This document shows positions 839-18,738 of a DNA stretch of 64,000 nt, piece by piece. Under the pieces are notes generated by a model, which searched no databases, was not told the DNA's origin, and worked only from the letters and a program-made list of their open reading frames with translations. The translations under genes were made by a program, and so were the position numbers. Source of the DNA: Octopus vulgaris (lineage: Eukaryota); NCBI GenBank assembly GCA_951406725.2, contig OX597814.1, positions 170,500,001-170,564,000 on the forward strand, given 5' to 3'. Position 1 is the stretch's first letter; each line of letters starts with the position of its first letter.

Positions 839-985
839 ATACTTTTTCTTTAAATTGCAAAAAAATGACTAAAAACGACAAAACAAATTCGCCACCCAGC
901 AACGGGTGAAAAAACAGTTCAGCAATAAATTTTTTTCTACAATAATTTCAAAACAGAATCTTCCGCCCCGCAGGACGAAAATTAC

Positions 986-1223
986 GGATCTTTGACAAAC
1001 AACAGCAGTAATTGTATTCACCTCGATAGACGTCATTGCTTGGTTGAAATTGCCGAAATACGAGAAATAAAACAAGAAATAGCTTACAAACTACACAATT
1101 TTCTCAAGAACGCCAAGAGAAAAAGATGTTTTATGTGACACATTCTACCAGTATACGAAGTTTAAAAGTGTTTAGTTACAAAGAAATTATTTTTAAAATC
1201 TGCCGGTCAAAGTGAAAAGATCC
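986..1223. mobile_element. GGATC-terminated MITE with truncated left TIR and 8-bp TSD
   Basis: GGATCTTT...AAAAGATCC ends. AAAATTAC lies on both sides (978-985 and 1224-1231). The interior matches the copies at 3540, 37810 and 39697. Confidence 0.8.
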
Positions 1224-1367
1224 AAAATTACTGTTCCACGAAGGGCAACAATTCAGTTCAAAGCAAAATACACAAAATATCACAATACCAGACAAAAACA
1301 CACGGAACGAACTCACATAACTTTGGTAACAGCAAATTACGACGCAAAAAATCCGAGTCTGATAGAG

Positions 1368-3150
1368 GTTAATTCTTTATTACAAGCACAAGGCCTAATT
1401 ACAGAGGGGACATACAAAGGACATGCGGGAACATAAAACATATGAAGGATGAATGTGAAATGAATATATTCACAATGCAAATGAGTCGGCCATCTCGCTC
1501 TCGCTGCGAGATGGAATTGTGTATTCCTTTAACACAACCTTTAGCCTCGCTCCGAGGCGAAACCGCGACTTCTCTTTTTGATTTTGCCCTACCATTATAA
1601 ACCTTTTAAACCAATGTTCATACAGTCCTTACTTATTTCTTTTCCTCTGTTTTTTTTTTAAACTAAAAGAAAACAAAATGTTTAACACAGTGTTAAAAAA
1701 AAATTTAGGAAACCTGTTCATTTAACAGTTTCAAGTTTTACATTATTTTTTCCTTTTTTTCCCCTAAAAAGTTCAAACAATCATTCCTCTCACTTACAGT
1801 CTTTACAAAATTATGATGACTTACCACTTACTCCTTTCAAGTTGGGGTGTCCTATCTCACTATAATTTTTCTTTTCGTTTGTGCTTTTCATGTTGTCTCT
1901 TTTTGCTTCTAATTTCCTGCTGTTTTATGTCTTCTTGTATTTCCGTCTCTAAGTCTGTGTGTTCTTGTATTTGTGTGTCTGTGTGTTCGTTTGACTGCAA
2001 CTCTACGTGTTTCGTCTGTGTGTCCATATCTTTAAGTTTTCCGTAATTCTGGGTTGTCTCGTTTCTGGTCTGACTGACTCTGTACTTTAATTCCTTTGCT
2101 GGTACTTCCACTGGTAAATTTTCTCCGTTTCTCGTCGTGGGTTGAGTTTCTTCTCCCATTCCTTTGCACTTCTTCACTTCCACTGTCGTCAGTGACTTTA
2201 TTCTCTCTCTTTTCCTGGGTTTTACCTCCGCCAAATTCCCGTCATATTCTGTTCTCTGCTTCTGCTTTTTTCCCAACACTATATCTTCCTGTACACTTTC
2301 TTCCACCATTTCTACTACTGCTGTAGGACATTTCCTTCTCAGGTGCCTTCTTTCATCGCATCCGTAACATTTTGGGGGTCTCCCTTCCAACATTACTTCC
2401 AGTTTTTCACCGTTTGGCAGTTCCACAGTTTCCGCCATTTCATCGTAATATTCTGGGCTTACCGCGCAAATTACTTCAATACCATAATCCCACGAATTCA
2501 ATTGTTGAGTTCTGCTTACTATGCTTACTATGTTCAGGTTTTCACTTCCCTTCGTCAGCTCTGAATTAAAAATTGCGACTACCACCCATTCTCTGTCTAT
2601 CAACGGTGGGATTCTTCTCGCCCTGACCCTGACGTGTCTTTTGCCCAAACAGTTCGGCACCAACGTCCATTTCTCTCCCAGTATCAGTGTGTTATCGTTC
2701 ATTTTCGCCTCCTCTTCTGATGCAAAGGTGACTATTATAGTTGCGTAATTCCTTCCTCTTGTAAAGAAAGTTATTCCTTCACCCATTCGTTCCTTCAATA
2801 TTTCCTCTATATCTTCCTGTGGCGCGTGCTCTGTTCTCCTATTTTCATTCGAAAATGTTCTGTATATCACCGTCTTCCTTTCCAATTTTCTTTTTTCTTC
2901 TTCTGACAGGGTCATTTTTTTGTTGGACCCTTCTTTTTCTATCATGCCATGATATTTGGCTATCTTCTCTTCATTTCACTTCATCCTCTTCGGCTTCAGC
3001 ACACGTGTGTCTATGGTATCTCGACCTTCAGTAGCTTCCGCGTAACTTTGCTTTTCTTCCATTATTCACTTTCACCCAACGATGGTGGCTTCGCACAAAC
3101 ATTCCTCATACACTTCTTCAAAAAAACAACAAAAACCGAGTCTGGTAGAG
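1368..3150 (-). mobile_element. ORF1-only (HAL1-like) Tx1/L1-derived element
   Basis: Short leader, intact ORF1, then a ~490-nt 3' UTR ending GTCCCCTCTGTAATTAGGCCTTGTGCTTGTAATAAAGAA. No EN/RT sequence between ORF1 and the tail. Confidence 0.75.
1860..2945 (-). CDS. Tx1/L1-type ORF1 (gag-like RNA-binding protein with CCHC zinc knuckle), 361 aa
   Basis: Uninterrupted ORF. GRPPKCYGCDERRHLRRKCP is a CX2CX4HX4C knuckle. It has an RRM-like N-terminal half and a charged low-complexity C-terminus. Confidence 0.85.
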   Translation of the reverse strand: MIEKEGSNKKMTLSEEEKRKLERKTVIYRTFSNENRRTEHAPQEDIEEILKERMGEGITFFTRGRNYATIIVTFASEEEAKMNDNTLILGEKWTLVPNCLGKRHVRVRARRIPPLIDREWVVVAIFNSELTKGSENLNIVSIVSRTQQLNSWDYGIEVICAVSPEYYDEMAETVELPNGEKLEVMLEGRPPKCYGCDERRHLRRKCPTAVVEMVEESVQEDIVLGKKQKQRTEYDGNLAEVKPRKRERIKSLTTVEVKKCKGMGEETQPTTRNGENLPVEVPAKELKYRVSQTRNETTQNYGKLKDMDTQTKHVELQSNEHTDTQIQEHTDLETEIQEDIKQQEIRSKKRQHEKHKRKEKL

Positions 3151-3539
3151 ATACTTTCTTTATTACAGGCACAAGGCCTAATTACAGAGGGGACATACAA
3201 AGACATGCGGGAACATGAAACATATGAAGGATGAATGGGAAATGAATAAATTAGAATGCAAATGAGACGGCCATCTCGCACTCACTGCGAGATGAAACCG
3301 TGGATTCCTTTTCCTTAAACTTTTACACAACCTCTAGCTGCGCTCCGAGGCGAAACCGCGACTTCTCTTTTCGCTTTTGCCTTACAATTATACACCTTTT
3401 AAACAATTGTTCCTGTAGTATTTACTTCTTATTTTTAACTTTTTTTTTAAAAACTAAAGTCAACGAAATGTGTATTACAATATTTTAAAAAACATTTTGG
3501 TAACTTGTTCATTCATCAATTACAAAATTTACTTATTTT
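3151..3539 (-). mobile_element. 3' UTR fragment of the same Tx1-like family
   Basis: Aligns to 1371-1750 (ACAAGGCCTAATTACAGAGGGGACATAC; GCTCCGAGGCGAAACCGCGACTTCTC). Confidence 0.85.
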
Positions 3540-3953
3540 GGATCTTTTCGGTTTGACCGGCAGTTTTTTAAAATAATTTCCACTTTTAAACTTCGTATAC
3601 TGGTAGAATGTGTTTATAAAACATCTTTTTCTTTTGGCTTTATTGAGAAAATTCTATAGTTTGTAAGATATATATTGTTTTTTTCTTCAATTTCTGCAAT
3701 TTCAACCAATCAATGACGTCTATTGAGGTGAAAACATTCTGTGCCGTATGAATTTGTCCCACGTTTAAGAAACAGATTGGGTTTATTTACATTTCTGAAG
3801 AAAAAAAGATACCCTTCCCCCCACCCCTAACCCTAACTAATCCTAACCCTAAAACAGATTCAAATGCAATAGATCGATACTAGGGTCATAATTATGGGTG
3901 ACAATTTCATATGACACCGCTAGAAAAAACTGCCGTTCAAACCGAAAAGATCC
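3540..3953. mobile_element. GGATC-terminated MITE with internal CCCTAA repeats
   Basis: ~30-bp TIRs GGATCTTTTCGGTTTGACCGGCAGTTTTTT / AAAAAACTGCCGTTCAAACCGAAAAGATCC. CCCTAA-like run at ~3825-3853. No TSD seen. Confidence 0.85.
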
Positions 3954-5287
3954 CTGGTCTACTGATCCCGTCGCTAGAAGGTGGTAGGCTTTCGTTCCCC
4001 TGTTCCCAATTTATCGGCTGCAGCTCTGCATCGTTAACAAGCAAGAGATGTCCTCTTGGGGTTAAAAAATTGCAGTAGAGTCTGTTCGAACGGACAGCCA
4101 CGCTGAAGTGGCTGCGAATATATTACTTGCTAGTACAACTACTGCGTTGATCTCTTAGAGAGGTTTTAGAACTAGTATATTTGCTTAGACATGTATATAT
4201 GTATGTATGTATGCATGTGTGTATGTATGTGTGTATGTATATATATGCGACTCTATACTGTTTGCTCCTCTAACCTCTCTAATTCATTTTTCCTCCCTGT
4301 CACCATATTCTATTTGTCTCTCTCTCTCGCTCTCCCTCTTCCTATTTTTCTCTCTCACTCTCTCTTCCTCTTTTCTCTCTCTCTCTCTCGTTGCTCACAC
4401 GTGACCATCGTCCATCTTTCTTTTCCTCACGTGACCATCTTTCTTTCCTGCATGGACGTTCGAAGGACTGGACGTTTCCTATCTCTCTCTTCTATCTCTT
4501 CTCTTTTCAAAGAAAATATTTCTCTTAGCGTTCACTATTTTCCCCTCGTTCAGGTCTAACCACCCTCCATATTTGTTTTCGTTCGGCTTCCTTGTATATC
4601 TCCACATCACCTGTTTTTGTTCCTAATTTTGACCCTCCATAAATCCCAAATTTTATTTTGGTATTTATGGGAGTAGCTATCTTCGAAGACTCATATTGTC
4701 GTTGACTTCTCAAAATAGGGAGTAGATAGACAGCCGATAACTGATGAAGGGTCATTCTTTGTATTGTCCTTTTTCTTCTCTCGTTCTTTACGTATTTATC
4801 TTATTTGTTTTCGTATTTCATGTTGTTTACCGCTGGTGAATATATATATATATAAGGTTTGAAGGGAAACAACTCGTGTCAAAATGTTGCTTCCTCTCGA
4901 GTACGTCTACCGAATTTTTTTTTTTACTCCAAGCAGTCATTGTTGACCAATGTTATTTGTCTAGTGTTTGACTAATTAATAAAAAAAAAATTAGTCAGGT
5001 ATATAACTGTATCTTCTATAATAGACTGTGCATACAAGCGCACGCACACACACACACACACACACACACCACCATCACCACCACCACCACCTCACGTACA
5101 TATTTAGTACGTTGTACTGAATGCTCTATTTTTGTTCATGTAATCAACTTTATACATTATATGTTCGTGTGTGTGTGTGTGTGTGTTCGCGCGTGATGCA
5201 TTTGTTCTTGTCGTCTGCGCTGATAATTACTTCGCCGCAGGAAGGTAATGTTTATTTTTCATTCTTTTAACTAATCAAAAATTATCA

Positions 5288-5661
5288 TCTTCTCTCTATA
5301 TATAAACGGCAGTTTGTCTGTGTGTGTTTCTGTGTGTCTGTTAGGTTGTACCCTCACCCTGGCCACGGCTTTCAACCGATTCTGATGAAACTTGACACAC
5401 ACATAGCCCAATGTCATAATTCAAAACTAACGCAGCGAAAATTTTGAAAAGTTCCCCCAGTTCTGAAAAAAATCGATAAATTCGACATGGGGTCGAGAAT
5501 GAGAAACACAAACCACAGACTGTCTAGGGGACGCAACTCGACCTTTTTAACTAAAAAAAAATTTACCATCATTTTTTTTCCATTTTTTGGCTATAACTCT
5601 CTAAAAATGCTTTATAGTTATTTCCCTTACAAACCCGAGCAACGCCGGGCGATACTGCTAG
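5288..5661 (+). mobile_element. Non-autonomous Helitron
   Basis: A|TC start. The 3' hairpin CCCGAGCAACGCCGGG is followed by CTAG|T. Confidence 0.85.
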
Positions 5662-5696
5662 TCTCTGTTAAAAGGGAACAAGGAAACTTTCAAAGA

Positions 5697-5869
5697 ACGA
5701 CAACAACAACAACAACAACATCAATAACAACAGCAAAAAGTATGATAGAAAATATAATTGAACACACCACCACCGACGGCGACAACAAGGACGATGGTGG
5801 CGCTGGTGGTGATTATGATGATCATGATTATGATGACGACGACGATGATGTCTCTGATGATGATGGTGG

Positions 5870-5909
<40 letters not shown>

Positions 5910-5942
5910 CACGACGACGACGACGACGATGATGATGATGAC
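5697..5942. repeat. (ACA)n and (GAT/GAC)n trinucleotide microsatellites
   Basis: Directly visible. Confidence 0.95.
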
Positions 5943-6428
5943 AAACATATGTTGCTAAAAAAAAATTATTTCCTTGTTCAAAAGATGTGTGAACGTATAA
6001 ATGATACAATAAACCTTGCTGGATGACCTAAAAAAAAAGAATGAAAAGAAATTGAAATAAAAAGTTAAAATATATTAAAAAAAATATTAATTGGCTCGTG
6101 AAAAAGAGAGAACCGTTTGTTAAATCTCAACACGTTTTTCTCTTTGCTAAATTGTATCGAGTTTTTGTAGATATGTTGTTGGAATGCCCGCTAAGTGTAA
6201 CGGATGAAAATCTGCGGTTAGAGAACTTCCTACTGACTCTTCAATCAAATTGAGCTTAATGTCCTATTGAGATTCACTGCAGTATGGCTCTCTGTAAATT
6301 AATGCAGGCTCTGCGGTGAATTTGAAACAAATGTTAAGTCTCCTCTGAGTTTCCAGCTACTGCTTGAGATATTCTACTTGGTTATCAGATTATACTTTAT
6401 TAAGCCATTTATGTTTATATTTGTGTGT

Positions 6429-7364: not shown

Positions 7365-7448
7365 CCCTTGGCTATCGATCGCCGATGTCAACAAAGGGGA
7401 TTGTATCCCTTTGGCTATCGATCGCCGATGACCCTGTTATCCCGTGGG
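7365..7448 (-). mobile_element. Penelope terminal-repeat fragment, inverted relative to 10905-10965
   Basis: 7385-7443 is the near-exact reverse complement of GGGATAACAGGGTCACCGGCGATCGATAGCTAAAGGGATACAATCCCCTATGTTGACAT. Confidence 0.75.
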
Positions 7449-7465
7449 TTCCAATAGGCTAGCAG

Positions 7466-7762
7466 AAAACCGAGTCTGCTAGAGATTAATTCTTTATTAC
7501 AAGGCCTAATTACAGAGGGGACATGCAAAGACATGCGGGAACATAAAACATATGACGGATTATTGTGAAATCAATATATTTATAATGCAAATGAGACGGC
7601 CATCTCGCTCCACTGCTCCCACTTATATTTCCTTTTTTTTTTCCTTAAATGTTCAAATAAATATTTTCCTACGTTACAGTCTTTACAAAATTATATCGAC
7701 CTACCTCTTTTACTTCTCACAATGTTGTTCACTTTTACAATCCTTTACGTTGGGGTGTCCTG
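7466..7762 (-). mobile_element. Deleted Tx1-like 3' UTR copy with the CCGAGTCTG junction motif
   Basis: Matches 1350-1500 and 1740-1853. Confidence 0.8.
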
Positions 7763-8061
7763 AAATGTAAGCACGATCCGAATTTACAGCGACTGGTCCC
7801 ATTAACGTAGGGGCCTGGATTTTCTAGGATTCTCCATGATATTACGTGTTTGTGTGAGTGTGTGTGTGCTCGCGCGTGATGCATTTGTTCTTGTCGTCTA
7901 TACATCAGCTGCCATACATGGCTGGCTAATGACGTGACGAAATTCCTTTCCGGGATCCAGAAGGAGGATCTGTGGTTAGAGAGGCGTTGTTTGAACGAGT
8001 TCCTGGAACAGCCGATGTATTTCCGTGGTCGGATGTTGGCGGTGGTGGTGCTGTTGGTGCT

Positions 8062-8405
8062 TGTTTGTTTGTTTGTTTGTTAAGCGAAGCGGTCTTCGTG
8101 GGAGAAGTCCGAAACGTGGTCCTTTGCTATTCGTAAGACCCGCAGAAGAGAAAGCAGGTTAACCCCCGACACCGAGAGCATCGACGGATGGATGCGCATC
8201 CAGGCTCAGCGGTTGCGTAGGAAGTCGGGGACAAGAAAGAGTGAGAGAAAGTTGGAGCGAAAGAGTACAACAGAGGTTGCCACCACCCCCTGCCGGAGCC
8301 TCGTGGGGCTTTAGGTGTTTTCGCTCAATAAACACACACAACGCCCGGTTTGGGAATCGAAACCGCGAGTCCGCTGCCCTAACCACTGGGCCATTGCGCC
8401 TCCAC
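8062..8405 (-). mobile_element. tRNA-derived SINE (GGAGGCGCAATGGCCCAGTGG head; octopus OR-like)
   Basis: A/B boxes and an (AAAC)n tail. 13-bp TSD TGCTGTTGGTGCT at 8049-8061 and 8406-8418. Confidence 0.9.
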
Positions 8406-8835
8406 TGCTGTTGGTGCTGGCGCTGCTGGTGTTGGCGTCATTGGAGGTGGCGATGGTGTTGGTGCCGCCACTGGCGGTGTTGGTAAAGGTGCCGTTGTTG
8501 TTATTATGGCCATCACCTTTGATGGAGGTGCTATCATTTCTGTTGTGGATGTCATTGGCGATGTCCCTGCTGCTGTTTCCGTTAGGGATACTGCCGTTGT
8601 TGTCGTCGCTGTTATTGTTTTTACTGCTGGGGATGGCACTACCGCTGCTGCTATTGGAACTGTCGAGCCTACTGCTCTAGCCGTAGACGTTAGGGAAGCT
8701 GCCGATTCTGCTACTGTTGTCGTTAGGGATACTGCCATTGTTGTTGTTGATGTTGTTATTGTTGTTATCGCTAGCGATGGTGCTGTTGCTTTTGTTCGCG
8801 TTTCTGCTGCAATTGGTCCTGACGTCCCTGATATT

Positions 8836-9063
8836 TATTTCTTTACTACCCACAAGGGGTTAAACACAGAGGGGACAAACAAGGACAGACAAACGGATTA
8901 AGTCGATTATATCGACTTCAGTGCGTAACTGGTACTTAATTTATCGACTCCGAAAGGATGAAAGGCAAAGTCGACCTCGGCGGAATTTGAACTCAGAACG
9001 TAGCGACAGACAAAATACTGCTAAGCATTTCGCCCGGCGTGCTAACGATTCTACCAGCTCGCC
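8836..9063 (-). mobile_element. tRNA-derived SINE with Tx1-like 3' tail
   Basis: Head GGCGAGCTGGTAGAATCG, B box GAGTTCAAATTCC, tail GTCCCCTCTGTGTTTAACCCCTTGTGGGTAGTAAAGAAA. Multiple copies in the window. Confidence 0.9.
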
Positions 9064-10999
9064 GCTATTGGTACTGACGTCCCTGCTATTGTGGTCGCCG
9101 TTAGGGGAGCTGCTCATGTTGCTGATGCTTCTAGGGTCAACCAGTACCTCGGCTTCATAGACGACTCCTTTGGTTTCGCAGTGGCCCTTCACTGGGCATC
9201 TGTTGCAGTCCCTGCATGAACATCCTGCCTCCACTCGTGGTCTAGTGGTACTAACTAGGATACTCTTAATATTGGGGTCACAGCTAAAAGAGACCCTATG
9301 GTCGTGCCTGTTAAAATGCGTCCATATCTATGTGAATTACTGAAATATCCTACTTGCAGACGCTTTTATTTTAAGAGAGAAGTGGGGCGGACAAACCAAA
9401 TGATATTTCTGTGGCGCTTCCTTCTACGAATATTGGGGTCTGGCATGTAGGAGATGCAGTCCCTAAATCCGCAAGCAGCTAGGGCCTCGTTATAGTAGGA
9501 GGCTGCTGCATCAAAAATCTCTTGGCTGGTGGAAAGGTTCATGATCCTTTTACTAACACCCTTCACCAGGTTTTTGAACACAATGGGTAGGTGACAGGAG
9601 ACTGTGTTGATGTATGTTAGCCTCTCATTTGGCTTGTGGTAGTGCCTGTATGTACCGGAGTTCAAATCGAGTGTGACGTCTAAGAAGTCCGCGGTGGTGA
9701 AGTGTCAATGGTGATTTTTAATCCCATGGAGGCAAGTGTGCGAATTAATCCTTTCCTAAGCTTGTCTAGCGTGTGGTCGTTTGCTCCCCTAGAACTGGCC
9801 AGGGCGTCATCTCTGTAGAGACCAAAGAGGACAAAGGGGAACTTTTTCTTAAGGGGATCAAGGGTATACAACCCAATGAGGTCGCATACATCAGCACTGT
9901 CATAGGCCTCCATCGCTACTTCAAAGGAGCCTGCTGGGTCGGATTGCTTGACCCAGGTCGAACCTTTATTGAACAGCACTGTTTTCCTGGAGTGCATAAT
10001 GACGTCTATATCCCTGTCGCTAACGCCCCTAGCGAAGGAAAGTTACGAGTAACCCTTTTGATATAGACAGGTAAAAATCGACTATGTCAAACTGGGGGAA
10101 CCTTGCTCTGCCTCTCCCCTTGTTGGTGTTAAACCATGCAGTCACCTCGTTGGTGCTAGATTGGTGGCTCTCCTTATGTCGTTATTGATTTTTCTCAATA
10201 TATGCTTGCTCACCAGACCGATCTCTGAACTGGCCGGGTTAATCAGGTGGCATTTAGGATTTGAGGCAAAGTCCGGTTTATGATCTTTGATGGTAATAAA
10301 GGCATTCCTTTTAGCTGGACTCTCTACCCTATCAGCTATATCTAGGTCGTTGGCTAATTTTTTGGCTTCACTGTTGACGCTGTTGTATGTGTGTGGGGAA
10401 ACGCGCCTATAATTTTGTGTGATATTGTTTTCTAGCAGCTTATCGTAATTAAGGGTGTCTATCCTATATAGGCTTTTAGTCTTATCGGAGAAAATTTGGG
10501 ACCTATCTGAGTTTTCTAGCAATATAATGTCGGCACGGAGCCTGCGTTGGAAGGAGCAAGAGGACTTAGAGAATTTTAGCTTGAGAATGATGTCCAGTTG
10601 GTCCGCTTCAAAAGGCTCGAGGTTTTGGGTGGGTATTTCCTAGATTTGATTCCATAGGTGTTGTTGTCTGGGGGTCGCGTGGCTAGGTCGTGGTACAATG
10701 CTTTCCACCTCATTCGCCTTATTACGTCCATTATTTTTTCTAACAGCATTCGAGTGAGTATATCCTTAGTGGAGTAGCCGAGGTCAAAACGTTCCATATT
10801 CATGAGAGACCAAGTAGTTTCTGAAAATATTTAACACAAACTACGTGCTCTTAGTGAAACACTTTGGCCAGGGAGCGCGATGGATCGTCTGAAAATATAA
10901 ATCCATGGGATAACAGGGTCACCGGCGATCGATAGCTAAAGGGATACAATCCCCTATGTTGACATTCCCCCTCTAGAGAGGCCTTTAGCCAACAAGTCT

Positions 11000-11065
11000 T
11001 GGGATCTGATGATACGCCATAAAAAAGCTAAACCCTTTATGGACGTGAAACCTAAGGTAATTCCA
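11000..11065 (+). ncRNA. Type I hammerhead ribozyme in the inverted Penelope terminal repeat
   Basis: TGGGAT-CTGATGA-T-ACGCCATAAA..TTTATGGACGT-GAAA-CCTAAGG-TA-ATTCCA. Core intact, stems I-III form, GUA cleavage triplet. Confidence 0.85.
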
Positions 11066-11088
11066 TAAACCGGCCTTATCTGACTTTA

Positions 11089-11156
<68 letters not shown>

Positions 11157-11158
<2 letters not shown>

Positions 11159-11469: not shown

Positions 11470-11531
<62 letters not shown>

Positions 11532-11536
<5 letters not shown>

Positions 11537-12152
11537 AAAGTCAAAATGCGATAAAATAAAATTAATTATTATCGCCGGTGTTCTAGCACAGGCCATATAT
11601 TATTCATATATAAGTACATTAAAAGGCGAAGTATGTACTAGATACACAGAAGCTTGATAAATTTAGTGAAATGAAAATAAAAACTTTTACTAACTCGGTT
11701 CATCTTATACTGCAGTTTCGTCTTTTTCAGCAATAAAAATAATTTATTTACTCAGGAGACTCGTCAGTAAGAGCCCTGTTATTCTGAAATCGCACCTCAA
11801 TAGAAGCATGTGCGTCTACTAATTTGCTCTTTCTAACTAATCAGATCACTGCGCAGACGCAGAACGTACCCGACAAACTAGGGGTTTCTGGTATATAGTC
11901 TAACGCTCAAAATTTATCGAGAAATATGTAAACAAAGTCAAAATGCGATAAAATAAAATTAATTATTATCGCCGGTGTTCTAGCACAGGCCATATATTAT
12001 TCATATATAAGTACATTAAAAGGCGAAGTATGTACTAGATACACAGAAGCTTGATAAATTTAGTGAAATGAAAATAAAAACTTTTACTAACTCGGTTCAT
12101 CTTATACTGCAGTTTCGTCTTTTTCAGCAATAAAAATAATTTATTTACTCAG
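11532..12152 (-). repeat. Partial tandem repeat with 397-bp period (224-bp direct repeats) containing a hammerhead; retrozyme/Penelope-pLTR-like
   Basis: 11532-11755 recurs at 11929-12152, apparently identical. Non-coding. Confidence 0.9.
11703..11772 (-). ncRNA. Type I hammerhead ribozyme
   Basis: Reverse complement: TCTTA-CTGACGA-GTCT..AGAC-GAAAC-TGCA-GTA-TAAGA. Intact core with palindromic stem III ACTGCAGT. Confidence 0.85.
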
Positions 12153-15574: not shown

Positions 15575-16219
15575 GCGGGGGTTGAAAAGAGGGACAGAAA
15601 TTCAAGATCAAATCTAATTTTACTTGTGCCTCTGAAAACATAATTTATGTCATAAGATGCTCGGGCTGCCACCAAAACTACGTGGGGTCCACGGGACTAT
15701 CACTCAGACGTAGATGCACACTGCATCGACAACAGATTGCATTCCCAGAATACAGAATGATACCCTTTAGTGAGCACATTGAGAAATGCGCAAAGCAACT
15801 ACTACCACAATTTTTAATCTTTCCATTTTACCAATGTGCTATCGGAACACCAACACAAATTAGACTAAACAAGGAAACATTCTTCATTGAAAAATATAAG
15901 CCCAAACTTAAACATTCCAACATTCTTATACAGAGAAACTCACCCCCCAAAAAAGGCAAGAAATATTAAGCGATTATCTCCCTTACACCGGAAGAAATCA
16001 CTTATTACCTCCCCTTATCTGGAACTCTTCTTTACACATCTCAACGAAAACATAACGATGTAAGAAATTTGAAATGCTGAACGCGAAACCGGTCATTTCT
16101 TCAAAAATTATGTCATTGTATGAAAAAAATTTATAACATTCTTCTGACATAATGACTCAAATATATATTTTTTAACCTTTTAAAACAAGCCTTCTGTAGT
16201 TTTTTCACTTTTTACTATT

Positions 16220-17541: not shown

Positions 17542-18508
17542 TTGCATTGTTTCTTTGCAGCTAAATTGTTCAAAGACTTCAAAAGTAAGTAGTTGCGACT
17601 TCTCTTGAAAATGGATATGGTTTGGCATTGTGGTGTTATCGAGTACCTGCAGAAAAAGGGTTTAGCCCTCAAGGACATTCATGCTGACATGGGGATGACG
17701 CTCTAGCTTTATCAACAGTGAAAAGGTGAGCAGCTGAATTTAGGAGGGGAAGGGAGAGTCTTGAAGATGACCCAGCAGCTGAACGTCCTGCAACTGCCAC
17801 TGCTGAGGAAAACATTGATCCTCTTCACCACATGGTGATGGCTGACAGACAATTGACTATAAATCACATAGCCAGTGCTATTAGCATATCTTGTGAGAGA
17901 GTTAAGAATATTCTGCTCAATGAACTTGTCACGATGAAGGTTTCTGCTCGGTGGGTGCCACGTCTTCTGACACCTGATCAAAAGCACACTAGGCTGATCA
18001 TGTCATGGCAAAATCTGAAAGTGTTTGAGGCAGATCCAGCTAGCTTCCCTTGAACATTTTCTAAGCCAGGATGAGTGTTGTGTTCATCACTTTGAGCCAG
18101 AGAAAAAAAAACAAGCCACCCAGTGGAAACATCCCTCCTCACCTGCTCTAAAGTAGGCGAAGGTTGTTCTATCTACAGAGAAGGTGATGACCCCAGTCTT
18201 TTGGGATGCAAAAAGCATTGTGATTATTGGCCATCTTCAAAAGAGCCACATCATCAATGGAGAGTACTATAAAAACTTGCAGAGGCAGTTACAAAAGGCT
18301 ATTAAGACCAAACACCTAGGAAAACTGACAAAAGGGGTCTTGTTTCATCAAGCCAATCCTCCAGCACACAAGTCCTTGCTTTTAATGGCTACTGTGCATA
18401 ATTGTGTCTTTGAACTGATTGATCAGCTATTCTCCTAATGTGGCCCCGTCTGACTATCATCTGTTCCCCAACATGAAAAAAGACCCCACTTGGCTGAGAA
18501 CTAGTATC

Positions 18509-18738
18509 TATTTCTTTACTACCCACAAGGGGCTAAACACAGAGGGGACAAACAAGGATAGACAAACGGATTAAGTCGATTATATCAACCCCAGTGCGTA
18601 ACTGGTACTTATTTAATCGACCCCGAAAGTATGAAAGGCAAAGTCGACCTCGGCGGAATTTGAACTCAGAACGTAGTGGCAGACGAAATACTGCTAAGCA
18701 TTTCATCCGGCATGCTGACGATTCTGTCAGCTCGCCAC
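18509..18738 (-). mobile_element. tRNA-derived SINE with Tx1-like tail, nested in the mariner
   Basis: Matches 8836-9063. GAGAACTAGTATC is repeated on both sides. Confidence 0.85.

Follow-up and report, generated by a model that had tools for sequence, protein, structure and literature searches.

The 64,000-nt stretch of the Octopus vulgaris genome analysed here (contig OX597814.1, positions 170,500,001 to 170,564,000; hereafter the window) contains on its minus strand an element which its motifs identify as a decayed copy of a Penelope-like retrotransposon (PLE) of the Hydra clade. The two tyrosine motifs of its C-terminal GIY-YIG endonuclease (EN) are separated by a spacer rich in Asn, Ser, Thr and Asp. 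The real signal in this spacer is its length, that is, 175 codons against 12-26 in relatives, and its sharing by sister copies. As judged from the compared sequences, the long spacer is an inherited trait of the family and is not private to this copy.

The full-length relative P0012, used as tblastn query, matches the minus strand in collinear order between 10770 and 7786 despite the frameshifts, with the reverse transcriptase (RT) preceding the C-terminal GIY-YIG EN. The frame changes are located at about 10620, 9700 and 9370, all ahead of the EN. The features of the Hydra clade, according to section 11 of Craig et al. (2021; PMC8557442), are RWK, DKT, a CxCx5C linker, the lack of CCHH and a (TA)n target. 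In the window, RWK, DKT (replacing DKG) and the CxCx5C knuckle were found (table 1), CCHH is absent, with no Cys pair within the GIY-YIG core, and the inverted pseudo-long terminal repeat (pLTR) stops at an AT array (11089-11157), which marks the (TA)n insertion site. From the CxxC/CxH around the conserved Glu and Asn, the first Cys and CxH are present and the intervening segment is deleted. In the same paper, the nearest published family is Hydra-1_Obim, which likewise shows RWK, DKT, a short CxCx5C linker, no CCHH, a C-terminal EN and a (TA)n site. In one RT block, 78 of 107 residues (~73%, counted by eye) are identical between the two. This nearness and the O. bimaculoides protein matches point to an octopus as host.

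Hydra-1_Obim is listed there as complete, whereas the copy in the window is dead. Its frameshifts, its stops, two short interspersed elements (SINEs) and a deletion in the EN prevent it from encoding an active nuclease. The deletion, overlooked by the earlier sequence-only reading of this DNA, removed ~26 codons in frame together with the conserved Glu and Asn. In a 57-row alignment, the catalytic Glu is found in 30/33 and the Asn in 31/37 of the rows having a letter there. The first Tyr (GIY-equivalent), present in 57/57 rows of the same alignment, is kept in this copy, as are the Tyr-Gly of YIG and the Arg and His of the following helix. Neither EN half has a Pfam match, no second copy of the element was found within the 64-kb window by tblastn or blastn, and an ARAGORN search gave nothing.

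Table 1. Features of the Hydra-type element in the window, from its 5′ to its 3′ end on the minus strand
Feature	Position	Strand	Basis and remarks
Inverted 5′ pLTR segment, up to the (TA)n array from 11089	10900..11088	+	Arms 7385-7450 / 10900-10965, 66 nt, 92% complementary
Type I hammerhead-like motif (CUGAUGA...GAAA) in the inverted pLTR, probably decayed	11000..11066	+	Sequence; stems I and II fold, z only -1.22; no Rfam hammerhead match
Decayed Hydra-type N-terminus, RT and thumb	9370..10797	-	RWK 10702-10710, DKT 10478-10489, YRDD 9806-9817, DFLDV 9675-9689; at least 3 frameshifts, 3 stops
RT-EN linker with CxCx5C knuckle (9178-9222)	9169..9327	-	Matches the Hydra linker of PMC8557442, section 11 and Fig. 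S7
GIY-equivalent GVVY (Tyr 9157-9159), first hairpin strand	9157..9168	-	Motif; alignment
Spacer part 1: remainder of strand 1 and start of low-complexity loop	9086..9156	-	
SINE2 target-site duplication, second copy (first copy 8809-8830)	9064..9085	.	
SINE2, high-copy repeat within spacer	8831..9063	-	92% identical copy at 18505-18736, further copies in the window; very high contig cover; strand presumed from the ends of the repeat
Spacer part 2: core of Asn/Ser/Thr/Asp-rich loop	8419..8830	-	
Lone TAG stop; TAC (Tyr) in sister contigs	8677..8679	-	Contigs of four runs
SINE1 (8062-8405, CAAA-repeat tail) and one 13-bp duplication copy (8406-8418; other 8049-8061)	8062..8418	-	
Spacer part 3: loop end and lead-in to strand 2	8020..8061	-	
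EN C-half: YIG 8011-8019, Arg/His helix 7972-7986, CA insert 7846-7878, ~26-codon loss 7782/7783, stop 7735-7737	7735..8019	-	By-eye comparison with Hydra-1_Obim in Fig. S7 of PMC8557442
3′ pLTR remnant, 23-nt internal repeat	7365..7450	-	

The spacer and its place in the hairpin

The Tyr codons of the two motifs (TAT at 9157-9159 and TAC at 8017-8019) are 1137 nt apart. In the sequence-only reading, the segments 8062-8418 and 8830-9063 were taken out, leaving 546 nt or 182 codons in frame with one stop; this arithmetic was reproduced, and the boundaries given for SINE1 were recovered with their perfect 13-bp duplication. The frame and the single stop stand, but the length had to be shortened, because the target-site duplication of SINE2 comprises 22 bp with 2 mismatches, of which 1 nt had been taken out. 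The spacer before the SINE insertions thus measures 525 nt or 175 codons, with the frame kept and the same lone TAG.

The two motifs had been described as normally about 10 residues apart. A short normal spacing was confirmed, at 8-11 residues in homing enzymes (PMC2248736), but in the Hydra clade it is 12-26 instead of ~10. In detail, the nine Hydra rows in Fig. S7 of PMC8557442 have spacers of 12, 12, 26, 12, 12, 13, 14, 15 and 15 residues. The 26 residues of Hydra-1_Obim are already Asn/Ser/Thr-rich. The copy in the window lies outside both ranges, with X = 175 in contrast to the GIY-(X)8-11-YIG of homing endonucleases. Among 113 representative protein matches, the spacer could be measured in 53 with a strict pattern, all at 12-22, and in 68 with a looser one, of which 66 are at 12-23, one is at 34 (P0104) and one is a false call. 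A metagenome profile scan provided 78 loci, with the spacer measurable in 77 and 12-21 codons long in 76/77, the remaining one being a partial-match artefact; the set consists of the best 80 of 265 ranked by E-value and is thus biased to short spacers. A further metagenome scan with the N-half of the EN of this element confirmed 0/554 stretches. Apparent spacers of 434 codons in metagenome locus L038 and of 48 residues in P0085 proved to be false pattern matches, and P0004 was set aside as an unrelated repeat protein.

In the literature search, no PLE with a long GIY-to-YIG spacer was encountered, although the family may be contained uncommented in Repbase, in Dfam or in the repeat library for O. 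vulgaris from PMC13282606, and the sections and figures of PMC8557442 used here include no long-spacer Hydra family. The PLE-related, Terminon-associated GIY-YIG ENs likewise have large insertions (PMC8557442, Fig. S2). In the rows compared, however, these are positioned after YIG, consist of ordinary complex sequence and leave the GIY-YIG spacer short, whereas the insert of this element lies between the motifs. A split of the GIY-YIG hairpin by 140-190 residues is the widest that could be found.

The spacer residues are N 23%, S 21%, T 8%, D 7%, I 7% and G 7%, with no Gln, 3 aromatics in 175 and one Cys, and hence no Cys pair between the GIY-equivalent and YIG motifs. The core contains an internal duplicate (8567-8636/8708-8780, 79%). 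Codons of the RNY type (purine, any base, pyrimidine) account for 134/175, against about one third in the RT. The alternative sense frame has 1 stop in 174 codons, and one antisense frame has 0/175. A triplet array of the host genome at 5700-5945 has the same character (RNY 56/82, 0 stops).

An AlphaFold model of the short-spacer relative P0006 (57 rows) reached a predicted local distance difference test (pLDDT) of 85.8. The strands of residues 68-79 and 86-98, long and antiparallel, carry Tyr72 and Tyr91, respectively, and are connected by a 6-residue turn ~8 residues past the first Tyr. The model shares the fold of I-TevI, whose catalytic domain (1ln0_A) is the best structural match in VIA-align (Z 9.3, rmsd 2.3, 90 residues), followed by T4 EndoII and UvrC. 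With the same model, Foldseek gave no match at E<=0.001. The ESM Atlas returned only unnamed or partly GIY-YIG clusters. In the homing endonucleases I-TevI and I-BthII, GIY and YIG are located on one beta-hairpin, which is followed by the Arg helix, the linker strand and the Glu helix (PMC2248736, PMC3045582). Since the copy in the window keeps the residues continuing strand 1 and those leading into strand 2, the insert would emerge at the tip of the hairpin, and the loop is predicted to project away from the active site.

In a model of the long-spacer relative P0003, built on a shallow alignment of six rows, residues 87-212 have a pLDDT <50 (about 30) and no secondary structure. The loop had been called disordered and prion-like. 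It is probably disordered, as this weak model suggests, but the second term is not supported, given that there is no Gln, that Asn+Gln amount to at most 24 per 80 residues and that aromatics are few. For yeast-type prion-like domains the yardstick is at least 30 Asn/Gln in 80 residues, and the spacer remains below it.

Relatives and sister copies with the long spacer

P0013 from O. bimaculoides (XP_014768101.1) aligns to the spacer with 40/68 residues in the EN frame and 59/105 in a shifted frame, and for both 0/500 shuffles scored as high. It is collinear along the entire spacer and does not have the SINE2 duplication. Its tail agrees with R-x-Y-I-G-C-S-R-N-S when read in the EN frame, which results in a spacer of 575 nt or ~191 codons with a net frameshift. 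The RefSeq entry, named "probable serine/threonine-protein kinase nek3", is a decayed EN and loop copy of this element, partly in a shifted frame. P0003 (UniParc) and P0083 (Logan) have 147 and 139-140 open N/S/T/D-rich residues past the first Tyr, respectively, with an N+S+T+D content of 52-67%, and both end without YIG. The window copy, P0003 and P0083 form one group (support 98/97) on a linker/knuckle tree of Hydra-like matches (69 columns, 24 rows, with P0013, P0007 and P0029 left out). The earlier claim that this family carries a long loop is therefore borne out by the full-length homology of P0013, by P0003 and P0083, and by the sister contigs described below. Word-index protein searches gave 0 matches for the EN C-half against longer proteins and 2 for the thumb, neither extending to the spacer, and a profile search of the same index recovered only the 3 stored members of the profile among 3473 candidates.

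Asn-rich extensions of the same loop are also seen outside the group of the window copy. P0104 (34 residues) and P0047 (ENA, 69+) suggest, by their place outside this group, separate expansions of the same hairpin loop. Together with P0009/P0035/P0060/P0084 and L047, they span 21-69+ residues and mark the loop as a possible recurrent hotspot.

Sister contigs were collected at an 80% likeness threshold from four sequencing runs (organisms A-D) of the 10 listed, a list in which no RNA run appears. At position 8575 in the spacer, 18, 18, 16 and 23 contigs of the four runs carry a different letter. At position 8677, the non-stop letter (TAC) is found in 5, 9, 6 and 10 contigs, with depth shares of 264/325 (the run under the best-matching label), 78.7/78.7, 34/34 and 506/506. 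As the sister contigs mostly read TAC, the TAG arose recently and the state common to the copies is the open one. Of two 282-base contig pieces over 8447-8728, one has 51 differences with just 3 gap letters and the other 47 with 5. Within the EN halves, the majority sister letters restore residues of Hydra-1_Obim, that is, Arg at 7959 and Asn-Leu at 9299/9303. The listed sister contigs differ by ~12-19% from this copy, a range bounded by the 80% threshold, and this is an indication that the family is old. An expansion of PLEs in O. vulgaris has been dated to a Jukes-Cantor distance of 0.2 (PMC13282606). Two contigs, from organisms B and C, continue for 18-22 bases into SINE1 and differ little there; this is below the 31-base bridging rule but hints at an orthologous copy.

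The loop itself shows no mark of selection on its sequence. In the comparison with P0013, the differences at codon position 2 amount to 16/60 + 19/93 = 35/153 and those at position 3 to 25/93 (minimum counts), and the two positions are thus about equally variable. The spacer similarity to P0003 is barely above that of composition shuffles (reached by 19/1000), and the similarity to P0083 is not above it (110/1000).

Surroundings of the element

Stem II of the hammerhead-like motif is longer than the stems of the Hydra elements listed in File S2 of PMC8557442. The CA microsatellite in the EN C-half is in frame and adds ~13 codons in comparison with P0006; blastn pairs it with a comparable stretch at 5156-5216. 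The interval from the EN stop to the 3′ pLTR remnant contains other repeats (7462-7709), which match 1344-1500, 3132-3288 and 1743-1829. Just past the (TA)n end of the element, a block of ~220 bases occurs twice (11526-11760 and 11900-12152). An unrelated second PLE-type GIY-YIG remnant lies on the plus strand at 15586-15969, with a Cys pair inside its core (Neptune/Naiad-like) and a Pfam GIY-YIG match (E 7.5e-4) under the curated cut-off. Outside the window, the O. bimaculoides "PH domain-containing protein" P0001 (UniRef A0A0L8FQN0) starts with ~170 residues of Hydra RT/thumb, fused to a host protein that matches PF06602, C1 and PH. It is probably a gene-model chimera and possibly a case of exonisation.

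Origin and meaning of the long spacer

On balance, we favour a disordered loop that grew by slippage and was tolerated at the hairpin tip of a once-active, autonomous Hydra subfamily, whose copies inherited the long spacer from a master element; the nuclease activity of this subfamily is presumed. A short Asn/Ser/Thr loop, like the 26-residue loop of Hydra-1_Obim, would have lengthened as RNY-type triplets were repeated and short segments duplicated, a mode of growth which keeps the frame and avoids stops automatically. The basis for slippage is the RNY share of the spacer and its likeness to the host array at 5700-5945. The RT-EN protein would still have been able to nick (TA)n targets and to prime reverse transcription, and the long-loop form would thus have spread to many copies. 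After its insertion, the copy in the window would have gained the two SINEs, the TAG, the frameshifts and the deletion of the Glu/Asn segment.

At most one stop in the spacer is seldom obtained in mononucleotide shuffles (P=0.019) but is common in shuffles preserving the composition of each codon position (P=0.87). The RNY periodicity makes an open frame expected, so that openness is barely informative and is weak evidence of selection. The knuckle and strand 1 are identical to P0013 in 16/18 residues against 33/59 for the loop (Fisher p=0.009; equal CpG density). This is in line with a nuclease under selection at a time when it already had the loop, but the contrast comes from a single pair of dead copies, and DNA prone to slippage could also account for it. 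Several results weigh against this explanation of a tolerated loop. The 575 nt of the P0013 spacer are not a multiple of 3, unless the gene model hides an intron. The linker/knuckle tree has only its 69 columns, with P0083 on a long branch. No intact long-loop nuclease was found among the 113 representative matches; P0003 and P0083 end without YIG, and this copy lacks Glu/Asn. In run X2, the summed contig depth, which is no copy number, is 1247 and 348 in the spacer core against 4131 and 6500 in the EN halves, with 984-5961 in the RT bins and 2842 in the bin with the first 30 spacer codons; this fits either faster divergence of the core or a large number of copies that lack the long loop. The joints listed, 15 of 1901, are all at SINEs, and the differences listed are 40 of 1598; a joint skipping the spacer, and copies lacking it, may exist among the remainder.

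The second explanation, rather unlikely but the strongest of the rivals, is that the long loop crippled the nuclease, or came once the EN was dispensable, and that the family spread in trans with a short-loop partner EN such as that of Hydra-1_Obim. The lack of a long-spacer protein with complete catalytic residues among the 113 matches or in the word-index searches is in its favour, as is the fact that P0013 is out of frame. A short-loop octopus family also exists, at the RT identity given above, and non-autonomous PLE derivatives have been proposed (10.64898/2026.07.22.740005). On the contrary, the family retains the whole RT and both EN halves. In sister contigs, the letter at 8677 gives no stop and conserved EN residues are regained. 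Conservation is higher in the knuckle and strand 1 than in the loop, and in three diverged relatives the loop has stayed in the phase of the open reading frame.

It is improbable, in our estimation, that the loop was selected for a function, either as a disordered tether, as an element of condensates or of ribonucleoprotein (RNP) assembly, or as a damper of the nuclease. Such a function would agree with the 140-190 residues maintained in at least three diverged relatives, with the separate expansion of the same loop in other Hydra lineages, and with the similar composition of P0003 and P0083 despite sequence turnover, which is seen in many functional disordered regions. This composition, however, follows from RNY triplet DNA, whose periodicity also makes the open frame expected, codon position 2 is no better kept than position 3, the P0013 copy is out of frame, and most Hydra elements work with 12-15 residues. 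The role in RNP condensation or targeting that had been proposed for the insert is unsupported, given the lack of Gln, the few aromatics, the low Asn+Gln content and the drifting sequence. We are equally doubtful of the full form of this idea, in which an octopus Hydra lineage long retrotransposed with an active nuclease whose tyrosine motifs stood 140-190 residues apart, its Asn/Ser-rich loop being kept for a job (tether, RNP condensation or nicking damper).

There is very little to recommend an intron, removed by splicing to give a normal hairpin. PLEs can carry introns (PMC8557442, legend of Fig. 1), and a donor-like GAG|GTACTG lies 12 nt past the start of the first Tyr codon. Nevertheless, the 3 GT donors in the first 120 nt of the spacer and the 5 AG acceptors in the last 120 nt form 0 in-frame pairs, the acceptors have 0-3 T in the preceding 20 bases, and the RefSeq model XP_014768101.1 treats the spacer as coding; splicing, which the sequence-only reading had named as a way to be wrong, thus finds no in-frame GT-AG pair. 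The idea that a microsatellite expanded once in this dead copy, following its insertion, and that sister copies lack the insert, is largely refuted, despite the triplet-like DNA, the similar array nearby and the CA repeat that did grow in the EN C-half, because relatives carry the insert, P0013 being collinear over the full spacer without the SINE2 duplication and 16-23 contigs per run showing diverged versions.

The long loop is thus a family-level oddity in a signature motif, most likely neutral. The known copies are old and dead, their former activity is presumed, and neutral growth of low-complexity sequence is common in surface loops. The long spacer explains why the element was missed by annotation, with EN halves that have no Pfam match and a sister copy named as a nek3 kinase in RefSeq. 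Short GIY-YIG spacing is the signature of this nuclease family, and a subfamily spreading with a spacer of 175-190 residues would show that the spacing is not a structural requirement and would mark the hairpin tip as a permissive site. If the reading of an active nuclease with a long loop kept for a function is true, the hairpin tip would be a repeated loop hotspot in Hydra elements generally, and GIY-YIG nickases would have there a natural site for insertions or for a split.

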